DNA of 64,000 nt from Escherichia coli (GTDB taxonomy: Bacteria > Pseudomonadota > Gammaproteobacteria > Enterobacterales > Enterobacteriaceae). The notes beneath the pieces were generated by a model. The model worked only from the letters and a program-made list of their open reading frames with translations. It was not told where the DNA came from and did no database searches. Both the position numbers and the translations under genes were made by a program. The stretch is from NCBI RefSeq assembly GCF_003334305.1, contig NZ_QOWS01000018.1, one strand, 5' to 3'. Below are positions 33,996-36,394 of this stretch, one piece after another; within the stretch, counting starts at the first letter, position 1; each line of letters begins with the position of its first letter.

Positions 33996-34208
33996 TTAAG
34001 AGAGATAAACATTTGCCGCTGTTGGTCCTCGCAGGCCATTTACGCGGCAAAATTCCACACGTAATCCTGGTATAAGCACTTCTGCGTCGCGGGGAGTGAA
34101 TGCGGAAATATGGACCTGAACTTCTTTACGACCGTCGGAGGGGATAATGAATCCTTTGCCGCTTTTGCGATCAAAGGTTTTGACAATTCCTGTCATTTTA
34201 CGGGACAA
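33996..34208 (-). CDS. cspH: Cold-shock-like protein CspH (70 aa)
   Basis: Track ORF 33996..34208; cold-shock domain. Confidence 0.93.
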
Positions 34209-34493
34209 ACAAATTCCTTACTGAAAATACTGCGCTGCACTATACGGGGTTAATAAAATAAAGCCAGCGATATTTAAGACCGCCGGACGGCTAAAATAAA
34301 ATTTGCTTAATCTCAATTATCATGCGTTAATAGCTGCGTCGGTTTGAAAGACAGACAGCATACAAAGTAGTTTACTAAAGCAGTTCTCATTATCAGGCAT
34401 TATCCCCTTCTTTTGAGTCTCTCTCCTGAACACTAAGTAGTTTCTGTATTAAAGCCCTGTTTGCCGAAAGGCCCAAAATGAAGGAAGTAAAAT

Positions 34494-34706
34494 ATGTCTA
34501 ATAAAATGACTGGTTTAGTAAAATGGTTTAACGCAGATAAAGGTTTTGGCTTTATCACTCCTGATGATGGCAGCAAAGACGTTTTCGTCCATTTCACTGC
34601 CATCCAGAGCAATGAATTCCGCACGCTGAACGAAAATCAGAAAGTTGAATTTTCTATTGAGCAGGGGCAACGTGGCCCCGCGGCAGCGAACGTTGTTACG
34701 CTCTAA
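34494..34706 (+). CDS. cspG: Cold-shock protein CspG (70 aa)
   Basis: Track ORF 34494..34706; [21 protein letters not shown]. Confidence 0.95.
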
Positions 34707-34905
34707 GGTTGCCGTTATTACTCAACATCTCCATTTCCGCTGTCCATGTTGTCATGGTTCACAGTACCGTACATCGGCATTCGATGTGACGGAGCGAAAC
34801 CCTTTGGGCGCTAAGTGTATTTTTTGTAAATCGACGATGATCACCTTTGATAACGTCGCGCTGCAAATATGCACGGACCATGCGCCGCTGGATTTCACAA
34901 AATAA
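34645..34905 (+). CDS. Small Cys-rich (zinc-ribbon-like) protein immediately after cspG; start uncertain, possibly K-12 ymcF
   Basis: Track ORF begins at TTG inside cspG; contains CPCC and CIFC motifs; true start may be the GTG at 34672 or later. Confidence 0.3.
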
Positions 34906-35110
34906 TATCAGGCTCCCTCGTGGAGCCTTTTTTATATCTGCCTTATTTTTCTTCAACGCTGTATGTATAGTAAGCGATAACCTGTTGATTATTGAATCTT
35001 TCGGGGAGATGGCTTATAACATTTCTTACCTGACCAGGGTACCGGGAACCAACACCTTACTGGCGTGTTGCTGTCTTTCAAGACCAGAAGAGGTTAACAG
35101 TGAATATTGA
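34880..35110 (+). CDS. ymcE: Cold-shock-region small protein YmcE/Sfa (76 aa)
   Basis: Track ORF 34847..35110; start [15 protein letters not shown]. Confidence 0.8.
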   Translation: MRRWISQNNIRLPRGAFFISALFFFNAVCIVSDNLLIIESFGEMAYNISYLTRVPGTNTLLACCCLSRPEEVNSEY

Positions 35111-35273
35111 AGAGTTAAAAAAACAAGCCGAAACGGAAATCGCCGACTTTATCGCGCAAAAAATCGCCGAGCTGAACAAGAATACAGGGAAAGAAGTCTC
35201 TGAAATTCGCTTCACCGCACGAGAAAAAATGACCGGGCTTGAAAGTTATGATGTCAAAATCAAAATAATGTGA
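35100..35273 (+). CDS. gnsA: GnsA, secG-null suppressor (57 aa)
   Basis: Not in track; GTG at 35100; MNIEELKKQAETEIADFIAQKIAELNKNTGKEVSEIRFTAREKMTGLESYDVKIKIM. Confidence 0.85.
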   Translation: MNIEELKKQAETEIADFIAQKIAELNKNTGKEVSEIRFTAREKMTGLESYDVKIKIM

Positions 35274-35320: not shown

Positions 35321-36394
35321 TTAGTGACCAATCATTGGCGCTTGTGGAATTAAGCGTCGGTACAATTCATCCGGTACCGGGCTTTGCCATACTCCCGCAT
35401 ACATTGCGTAACCAATCACCGCAAACATAATCCCCAGAACCAGTAGCGTCATTAACCAGCCAGACAACGCAAAGGCTTTTTTATTTGCCGCAGGTTTTTG
35501 CAGTGAAAAGGTCAATGTTGAGGCTACCGGACATGACTCTACGCAAGTCATACAGCCGGTACATTCCACTGTTCGTACCTGAATTAATTTATCTACCGGG
35601 ATCCGTGATGGGCAATTTTTTGCGCATTTGCCACAGCCGATACAACTTTCGGCATTGCGACGAATCTTAAACGGCGATAATAGCGAAACCACGCCCATCA
35701 GCGCGCCATATGGGCAAAGATAACGACACCAGGCATGGCGAATAAACAGGCTGGCAATCAGCAAAACGGTCACGCTGATTAATGTCGCGGTCCCCATATG
35801 ACGAAAGAAATCGAGCATTTTTACGTCCATCACCACGCTGTAGGGCGACAACATAAAATAGTGAATCGCCTGAGCGGGCATCAATAACGCGATATAGAGA
35901 AAAAAACTCAACAGCAAATACTTCACGCCGCGCAGAGGAATATCCAGCCAGCGGGGAAGGACACATTGCCGACCAAACAGTTTGTTACCGAGATCGCCGA
36001 TTAATTCAGAAAGCGTACCAACCGGGCATAACCATGAGCAAAAGGCCTTTTTGAGTAATAGACTGATGACGATAAAAGCGACCAATAACAGCATCGCGGC
36101 GGCGTGGACGGACGGTAACTGACCTGTTGTAAGGCTATATTTCAGATTCATCAGACCGGCAATCGGTAGCCAGCCTTCGATACCTCCCGGTCTGGCGACA
36201 AATGTCGTGCTACTTGCCGTTTCGTAATAGCGCACCCAATACCAGAACGTGATGGCAATATAAATATTCATTGCCAACAGTAATAATTGCGTCGCTTTAC
36301 GCCAGGTCGTGGCATTGCGCCAGTCATTCCACGGTAATTTGCCGCCCGTCGTGCCTGGCCGCCGCTGCCAGCGGGTTCTTTTTTTCTCTGCCAT
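35321..36394 (-). CDS. yccM: 4Fe-4S membrane protein YccM (357 aa)
   Basis: Track ORF 35321..36394; ferredoxin-type cysteine clusters CIGCGKCAKNCP and CTGCMTCVESCP. Confidence 0.9.
   Translation of the reverse strand: MAEKKRTRWQRRPGTTGGKLPWNDWRNATTWRKATQLLLLAMNIYIAITFWYWVRYYETASSTTFVARPGGIEGWLPIAGLMNLKYSLTTGQLPSVHAAAMLLLVAFIVISLLLKKAFCSWLCPVGTLSELIGDLGNKLFGRQCVLPRWLDIPLRGVKYLLLSFFLYIALLMPAQAIHYFMLSPYSVVMDVKMLDFFRHMGTATLISVTVLLIASLFIRHAWCRYLCPYGALMGVVSLLSPFKIRRNAESCIGCGKCAKNCPSRIPVDKLIQVRTVECTGCMTCVESCPVASTLTFSLQKPAANKKAFALSGWLMTLLVLGIMFAVIGYAMYAGVWQSPVPDELYRRLIPQAPMIGH

Follow-up and report, generated by a model that had tools for sequence, protein, structure and literature searches.

The cold shock gene cspG of Escherichia coli is followed by a short reading frame rich in cysteines, which raises the questions of whether this frame is a gene, where its translation begins, what its cysteines do, and how its expression relates to that of the cistron in front of it. 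We addressed these questions in a stretch of 64,000 nucleotides from one E. coli contig, hereafter called the window.

Identity of the cysteine-rich frame

A preliminary description of the window had pointed out a cysteine-rich frame between cspG and ymcE and had suggested that it may be an annotated K-12 gene. The program-made list of open reading frames contains a stop-free frame on the plus strand that extends for 86 codons from a TTG at 34645 to a TAA ending at 34905, and its translation between cspG and ymcE includes ...RCPCCHG...KCIFCKS.... Comparison with the K-12 annotation returned ymcF (b4723), which bears out both points. The upstream cistron, cspG, occupies 34494-34706 on the plus strand and encodes 70 aa according to the ORF list and to RefSeq annotation of identical DNA. 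The ymcF coding sequence spans 34717-34905 on the same strand (62 codons plus TAA; Pfam PF23641 and RefSeq), and its last 26 nt are shared with the 5' end of ymcE (34880-35110, plus strand, RefSeq annotation), which is read in another frame. The neighborhood also comprises cspH on the minus strand (33996-34208), gnsA 3' of ymcE (35100-35273), and the convergent gene yccM on the minus strand (35321-36394).

A query of 901 bp around ymcF matched 5417 of the 5426 complete E. coli genomes, and the annotations beneath this match are cspG, ymcF (named either "cold shock small protein YmcF" or "cold-shock protein"), ymcE, and gnsA. RefSeq strain H15 carries 100% identical DNA and has ymcF annotated at window positions 34717-34905 with an ATT start; the counterpart in K-12 MG1655, b4723, lies at 1051684-1051872, also has an ATT start, and is 98% identical. 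Residues 1-62 of the product align with positions 1-62 of the 62-position Pfam model PF23641, "YmcF-like" (E = 7.9e-48, score 161), and include the motif pair of that family, FRCPxC...GAKCIFCK. The same model is carried by all 120 relatives listed (of 137). NCBIfam has no dedicated model for YmcF, and neither YmcF nor YnfQ has a family in PHROGs.

By these matches, the cysteine-rich frame is almost certainly ymcF, a small cold shock gene that is already known from the K-12 annotation, RefSeq, and Pfam. The ymcF/ynfQ pair reportedly entered the K-12 annotation after the cold shock ribosome profiling of Zhang et al. 2018. The text of the Weaver et al. preprint does not mention the ymcF locus. 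Searches of the accessible literature found no functional study of ymcF, ynfQ, b4723, or b4724 and no experiments on the YmcF protein, its metal content, its start site, or its phenotype. Taken as a whole, the locus is very probably best explained as ymcF encoding a Cys4 mini-protein from the second cistron of the cspG transcript.

The window copy resembles K-12 ymcF in its position 10 nt after cspG, its length, and its ATT start, and the two proteins are identical at 61 of 62 residues. The difference lies in the variable tail at codon 52 (34870-34872, plus strand), which is TGC (Cys) in the window and CGC (Arg) in K-12; one further base differs in the spacer between the Shine-Dalgarno (SD) sequence and the start codon. 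With Cys52, the variable C-terminal tail gains a cysteine, the fifth or sixth of the protein. This is a minority allele, since the exact 41-mer around codon 52 occurs in only 162 of the 5426 complete E. coli genomes.

Conservation and coding status

Short ORFs with pairs of CxxC motifs do arise by chance: among the 370 stop-free stretches of 60 aa or more in the window, 5 carry CxxC-x10-40-CxxC, so the motif alone is weak evidence for a gene. We therefore rely on conservation. The median pairwise dN/dS over codons 2-44 is 0.066 and the maximum is 0.24, values to be read with the caveat that synonymous sites are saturated in most intergenus pairs, and both other frames are interrupted by stops in every pair compared. 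The core FRCPxCxGSQYR.S.FD.... is nearly invariant in alignments A1 and A2 and is kept across more than 20 genera. The preliminary description had named conservation of the cysteines in relatives as a check, and the same two alignments show C9 and C12 to be invariant and C34 and C37 to be nearly so (in an alignment of 50 sequences, C37 is invariant and C34 is over 90% conserved). Replacements of C11 and H13 occur in distant family members, and the C-terminal tail is variable beyond a conserved core of 35 residues. This pattern of substitution indicates that the ymcF frame encodes a translated product on which purifying selection is strong. That the frame is a chance ORF or a nonfunctional relic with meaningless cysteines, as the 5 in 370 might suggest, has a negligible probability beside the Pfam match at E = 7.9e-48, the dN/dS of 0.066, and the near-invariant core.

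A word-indexed search of 5.8 billion proteins yielded 137 relatives, mostly named "cold shock small protein YmcF"; essentially all are from Enterobacteriaceae, and a few are phage derived. When 1.84 billion cluster representatives were searched exhaustively with a profile, just 42 clusters were recovered, and the YmcF family is therefore small and narrow.

The paralog ynfQ and phage-borne copies

E. coli K-12 has a second member of the family, ynfQ (b4724), which is located in the Qin prophage 10 nt past the cspI stop, has TGAGG at this junction, and also begins with ATT. YnfQ and YmcF are both 62 aa long and 66% identical, and both genes are directly followed by a terminator and have a gns gene on their 3' side (gnsB for ynfQ and gnsA for ymcF). 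The two loci differ in that ynfQ is prophage or phage borne and placed after a lysis cassette, encodes a different tail, and is followed by ynfR and ynfN rather than ymcE. YnfR is an unrelated product of 21 aa.

Copies of ynfQ also occur in the lambdoid phages Tritos, mEp460, and 2H10, and viable lambdoid phages likewise carry the module of csp, ymcF/ynfQ, a small ORF, and gns behind their lysis genes. In Tritos, cspI, the ynfQ-like ORF, ynfN, and gnsB come right after the lysis genes (locus L089, 2278-3337). The ynfQ-like ORF is left unannotated in 5 of 9 phage records (hits H17-H20 and H22), presumably because of its ATT start. Morganella phage IME1369_01 has another unannotated ymcF-like ORF, whose product begins MIIALFFQCPCCSGTQYR... 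and whose ATG lies 9 nt past a phage csp. A terminator and a gene for a lipid A lauroyl-acyltransferase follow this ORF. The csp, ymcF-like, and acyltransferase genes of this phage (locus L090, 2267-2630 and 2852-3634) look like a phage-borne cold adaptation cassette downstream of the antiterminator Q.

Start codon of ymcF

The frame is open well into cspG, and the preliminary description had accordingly described it as overlapping the 3' end of that gene, with a start at TTG 34645, GTG 34672, or later. Only the last of these options covers the ATT at 34717-34719 (plus strand), which is the start codon in the K-12 b4723 and H15 annotations and in comparative loci; the two codons that were named are not conserved. 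The overlap belongs to the mechanical ORF, as the gene itself starts 10 nt past the cspG stop and does not overlap cspG. At the junction, the sequence TAAGG (34704-34708, plus strand) combines the cspG stop (34704-34706) with an overlapping SD sequence, AAGG (34705-34708), and an 8-nt spacer leads from there to the ATT.

We surveyed this junction in 80 loci, taken from one genome per species together with loci fetched by protein identity, and the start codon counts cover 82 related loci. In all 37 loci where an intact csp ends 9-10 nt upstream, ymcF starts with ATT (34 loci) or ATC (3 loci) and never with ATG, and every one of them has TAAGG or TGAGG at a distance of 7-8 nt ahead of this codon. 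The genera with this coupled arrangement include Escherichia, Salmonella, Citrobacter, Kosakonia, Trabulsiella, Yokenella, Siccibacter, Pluralibacter, and Intestinirhabdus. The 45 loci without an intact adjacent csp have ATG in 38 cases and ATT in 7, and in most of the uncoupled loci that start with ATG, this codon is exactly the one aligned with the ATT. Two of the seven ATT exceptions have a freshly damaged csp (L028 and L038), two are Atlantibacter loci with ATT and ATG in tandem (L062 and L088), and three are Pseudescherichia-type loci without a csp ORF upstream (L042, L066, and L074).

The same survey bears on a longer protein of 70-86 residues that would start inside cspG at TTG 34645, GTG 34672, or TTG 34693. 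Such a protein would be compatible with the frame being open from 34645, with the AGGGG that precedes GTG 34672, and with database homologs (P0004-P0006, P0015, and P0019) of 70-71 aa that start at an upstream TTG or ATG. However, the stop-free extension inside cspG (34645-34716, plus strand) is not conserved in length or sequence: the open in-frame stretch 5' of the ymcF start varies from 9 to 207 nt across loci, 12 of the 37 coupled loci lack any canonical in-frame start (ATG, GTG, or TTG) upstream, and the csp stop of Kosakonia, 9 nt before the ymcF start, is itself in the ymcF frame. The recurrence of a TTG 24 nt upstream follows from the conserved Asn-Val-Val codons of csp. In ynfQ, an in-frame TAG lies 8 codons upstream of the ATT with no ATG, GTG, or TTG between them, and the next in-frame ATG comes only after the first cysteine pair. 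The exact alignment of the uncoupled ATG with the ATT codon and the ATT of the curated K-12 annotation also count against an upstream start. Gene callers limited to ATG, GTG, and TTG either miss genes of the ymcF type, as in several phage records, or extend them into csp, and the 70-71-aa database versions are explained by this insistence. YmcF most likely does not include residues encoded by 34645-34716, and the longer protein is very improbable. Since the curated annotation, the architecture of ynfQ, and the junction survey all agree, we assign the start of ymcF to the ATT at 34717 with high confidence.

Metal site, fold, and possible function of YmcF

Reading the two cysteine pairs as a zinc ribbon, as the preliminary description did, is reasonable, since they make up the conserved core of a small zinc-ribbon-like protein; we count 21 residues between CPCC and CIFC, in place of the 22 given earlier. 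The core comprises residues 7-41 (34735-34839, plus strand; alignments A1 and A2 and the AlphaFold2 [AF2] model), and alignments A1 and A2 point to C9 (34741-34743), C12 (34750-34752), C34 (34816-34818), and C37 (34825-34827) as the putative ligands, all on the plus strand. With 50 diverse sequences as input, AF2 gave a model of moderate confidence overall, with pLDDT values of 85-90 over residues 11-40; an input of 33 close sequences reached a pLDDT of only 58. The best fold matches are statistically weak and are all zinc ribbons, namely, TFIIE-alpha, eL43, TFIIB, YfgJ, and MqsA. YmcF shares with Cys4 zinc ribbons (TFIIE-alpha, TFIIB, TFIIS, eL43, YfgJ, and the N domain of MqsA) and with rubredoxins two CxxC knuckles about 21 residues apart, which in YmcF would sit on short beta-hairpins, and these domains are its best, though statistically weak, fold matches. 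The four cysteines probably bind one structural metal ion in a fold of the zinc-ribbon or rubredoxin type, and the metal would most likely be Zn(II).

The geometry of two CxxC motifs is common to rubredoxins as well, and YnfQ has been independently modeled with a rubredoxin-like topology and an Fe2+ metal site (PMC13348028). YmcF could then be a redox-active iron protein, with a rubredoxin-like Fe(Cys)4 center or a small Fe-S cluster, that serves electron transfer or redox sensing in the cold. Two further features point in this direction: the first knuckle resembles Rieske box II (CPCHGSxY), and the neighboring yccM encodes a 4Fe-4S protein. The metal in the published model was chosen by the modelers and not measured, however, and yccM is convergent and is not kept next to ymcF in other genera. 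Rieske-like profile matches reach 14 bits against cutoffs of 154-250, and matches to Rieske-type PDB entries have E values of 0.04-0.8 over only 13-16 residues. We rejected a Rieske or 2Fe-2S kinship based on the string CPCCHGSQY because box I (CxH) is absent and both H13 and C11 vary in distant members. We consider an iron protein improbable and retain a structural zinc site as the preferred reading.

Two other family assignments were tried and discarded. The putative zinc-binding family of YnfU/ECs_2282 (NCBIfam NF047912) scores 14.5 bits with YmcF and 17.8 bits with YnfQ against a cutoff of 37, and the hhalign probability for YmcF versus YnfU is 2%. Despite the label "cold-shock protein," YmcF does not belong to the CspA-family cold shock domain (PF00313), as a Pfam scan of YmcF returns PF23641 only; a tblastn search with CspG matches just cspG and cspH within the window.

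YmcF has a mass of approximately 7.05 kDa and a calculated pI of 7.6, which argues against a strongly basic nucleic acid binder. F7, R8, Q16, Y17, R18, D23, N28, P29, G31, K33, F36, and K38 would form a near-invariant surface, and near invariance of exposed residues argues for a specific conserved partner. The molecule that this surface contacts in cold acclimation may be a conserved member of the RNA, translation, or transcription machinery. Our best guess is that YmcF is a zinc ribbon that binds a conserved RNA or protein partner in cold acclimation; binding to RNA or a machinery partner in particular is a conjecture that we regard as doubtful.

Transcript context and cold regulation

A csp-type motif, CATGCGTTAAT, can be read at 34321-34331 on the plus strand just upstream of the 5' end of the cspG mRNA and is a putative promoter. 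Nearly all related loci have the same 11-mer, with up to two mismatches, no more than 700 nt upstream of ymcF, and loci that have lost the csp coding sequence are among them. The cspG mRNA matches the Rfam cspA thermoregulator (RF01766) at 34338-34760 on the plus strand (L001, 1439-1861) with 162.7 bits against a gathering threshold of 78, and the match covers the 5' untranslated region (5'UTR), the cspG coding sequence, and approximately 44 nt of ymcF. Experiments have established the cspG 5'UTR as an RNA thermometer that responds to cold (PMC13271884). A terminator scan placed an intrinsic terminator at 34910-34934 on the plus strand, 5 nt past the ymcF stop, with a GC-rich stem of 7 bp and a loop of 5 nt (34910-34928) followed by a T-run to 34934; the predicted fold has -12 kcal/mol and a z score of -3.06. 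Most coupled loci have a comparable hairpin and T-run directly 3' of ymcF. We treat cspG-ymcF as a two-gene unit because it is bounded by the cspA thermoregulator on its 5' side and by a terminator right after ymcF. In published RNA-seq lists, ymcF moves with cspG and ymcE (PMC11728337, PMC10920338, and PMC13058169), and a gene table in PNAS lists ynfQ as "cold shock induced." YmcF would thus be part of the cold regulon through the cspG transcript and its thermometer.

The ymcE coding sequence begins inside ymcF and reads through the cspG-ymcF terminator, so that the hairpin and T-run double as the codons for R-L-P-R-G-A-F-F. The Qin locus has a similar feature (L003, 6189-6254), in which ynfR (MKAPSGAFLLG...) is encoded across the ynfQ terminator with its ATG 2 nt past the ynfQ stop. 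Strong cold induction of YnfR-SPA has been reported (PMC6001520), and readthrough transcripts are therefore translated at the Qin locus. The status of ymcE as a genuine gene may be worth checking.

ymcF in relatives without an intact csp

Enterobacter retains a 24-nt conserved stretch of csp-type 5'UTR approximately 125-150 nt upstream of a ymcF that starts with ATG. In Enterobacter hormaechei (L080, 1260-1500), ymcF is monocistronic, starts with ATG, and lies approximately 195 nt behind the csp-type promoter motif. The leader keeps the csp 5'UTR stretch, gtagttttataaagcagttctcat, without a csp coding sequence, and the same layout recurs in L065, L068, L072, L075, L082, and L084-L086. As read from this layout, the small protein would in effect replace the csp gene in Enterobacter. 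In Klebsiella, Raoultella, and Atlantibacter, a decayed csp remnant is still in place upstream of ymcF.

Two copies of ymcF are present approximately 3.5 kb apart on the same contig of Citrobacter braakii ATCC 51113 (L019 and L087); one starts with ATT 10 nt behind an intact csp, and the other starts with ATG 428 nt behind a csp and has a Klebsiella-like junction. A locus of Kluyvera (L007, 932-1076) has the SraC/RyeA and SdsR/RyeB small RNA pair beside a cspH-like gene upstream of ymcF, a feature unrelated to ymcF.

Coupling of ymcF translation to csp

In the coupled layout, the ATT follows the cspG stop by 10 nt and the SD sequence overlaps the cspG TAA, and the same arrangement is found in 37 loci. 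AUU is a weak initiator against which initiation factor IF3 discriminates, as established for infC, and infC and pcnB are AUU-initiated genes of E. coli, with weak and IF3-sensitive initiation. Like these two genes, ymcF has a normal SD sequence before its AUU. It differs from them in that its AUU follows the stop of the preceding cistron by 10 nt and covaries with the integrity of that cistron, which suggests reinitiation rather than autoregulation by IF3. AUU initiates poorly by itself, and with an SD sequence overlapping the cspG stop as TAAGG and a noncanonical ATT 8 nt further on, we propose that most YmcF would come from ribosomes that have just finished translating cspG, through translational coupling or reinitiation. 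On this view, YmcF would appear solely in the cold, when cspG is being translated, and would be less abundant than CspG. In loci whose csp decayed or was lost, ymcF mostly starts with AUG and retains an upstream csp-type promoter motif. The level of IF3 also rises after cold shock, which counts against this proposal, as it would favor a low rather than a cold-specific expression of YmcF.

The observations that fit reinitiation are the overlap of stop and SD sequence, the 10-nt gap, the retention of ATY with an intact csp, and the presence of ATG where csp has decayed. Citrobacter sedlakii has a decayed csp and an ATG start, whereas csp is intact and the start is ATT in other Citrobacter; in Klebsiella and Raoultella, the former junction of stop, SD sequence, and spacer persists, yet the start behind the csp remnant is ATG. 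These two cases argue that the change between ATT and ATG has occurred repeatedly. The association is imperfect, as three Pseudescherichia-type loci keep ATT without a csp ORF upstream and the Morganella phage copy has ATG 9 nt past an intact csp.

Both exceptions would fit a ymcF with its own, independent ribosome entry, in which ATT merely keeps expression low and the association with csp reflects shared ancestry. The SD sequence is at an ideal spacing before the ATT, and the junction has no conserved occluding hairpin, as such entry would also allow. The split between coupled and uncoupled loci (ATY in 37 of 37 versus ATT in 7 of 45), although drawn from phylogenetically nonindependent counts, speaks against independent entry, as do the switch to ATG within Citrobacter and the ATG at Klebsiella and Raoultella junctions that still show their former coupled layout. 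We regard independent entry as the less likely reading, though one of appreciable probability. On balance, the comparative pattern tips us slightly toward ymcF translation being coupled to cspG. The stronger claim, that the AUU or AUC of ymcF and ynfQ is selected only 9-10 nt behind an intact csp and gives way to AUG upon csp loss, we put forward tentatively, with somewhat less than even expectation.

A hairpin occluding the ymcF ribosome binding site was considered and rejected: the E. coli junction folds at -37.3 kcal/mol (z = -1.9), but the hairpin is not conserved, and RNAalifold predicted no shared base pair over the csp-ymcF junction among 19 diverse junctions. For this reason, we claim no occlusion mechanism. 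A CspG-YmcF fusion by frameshift or readthrough was likewise rejected, as the gap is 9 or 10 nt depending on the genus and in-frame stops intervene. The one in-frame csp-ymcF ORF is in Citrobacter sedlakii NBRC 105722 (L026, 1290-1690), where a csp-like ORF has lost its stop and continues in frame into an ATG-start ymcF. The RNP motifs of this ORF are mutated (KEFN and VFVPSS), and we probably see a csp in decay here and not a working fusion of Csp and YmcF. Two of the Pseudescherichia-type loci (L042 and L074, 1482-1508) have a mini-ORF of 8 codons, ATG AAA AAA GGA TAC TAT TAT TAC TAA (MKKGYYYY*), that contains the SD sequence and overlaps the ATT start; the third, L066, lacks the ATG of the mini-ORF. 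The mini-ORF is a possible substitute coupling partner in these loci.

Implications

As a discovery, the finding of ymcF adds nothing, since the gene is real but known. Its comparative pattern of start codon and coupling may be the sole new element, of modest scope, and our searches of the accessible literature turned up no account of that pattern. YmcF emerges as a highly conserved mini-protein of the cold regulon that is largely restricted to Enterobacteriaceae, and the pattern of ATT in coupled and ATG in uncoupled loci offers a cheap handle on how ymcF is expressed. If selection indeed keeps the AUU or AUC only behind an intact csp, YmcF would be made obligatorily by ribosomes that reinitiate after terminating on csp, which would fix a low ratio of YmcF to Csp and would hint that YmcF acts together with the cold shock protein or on the same targets.
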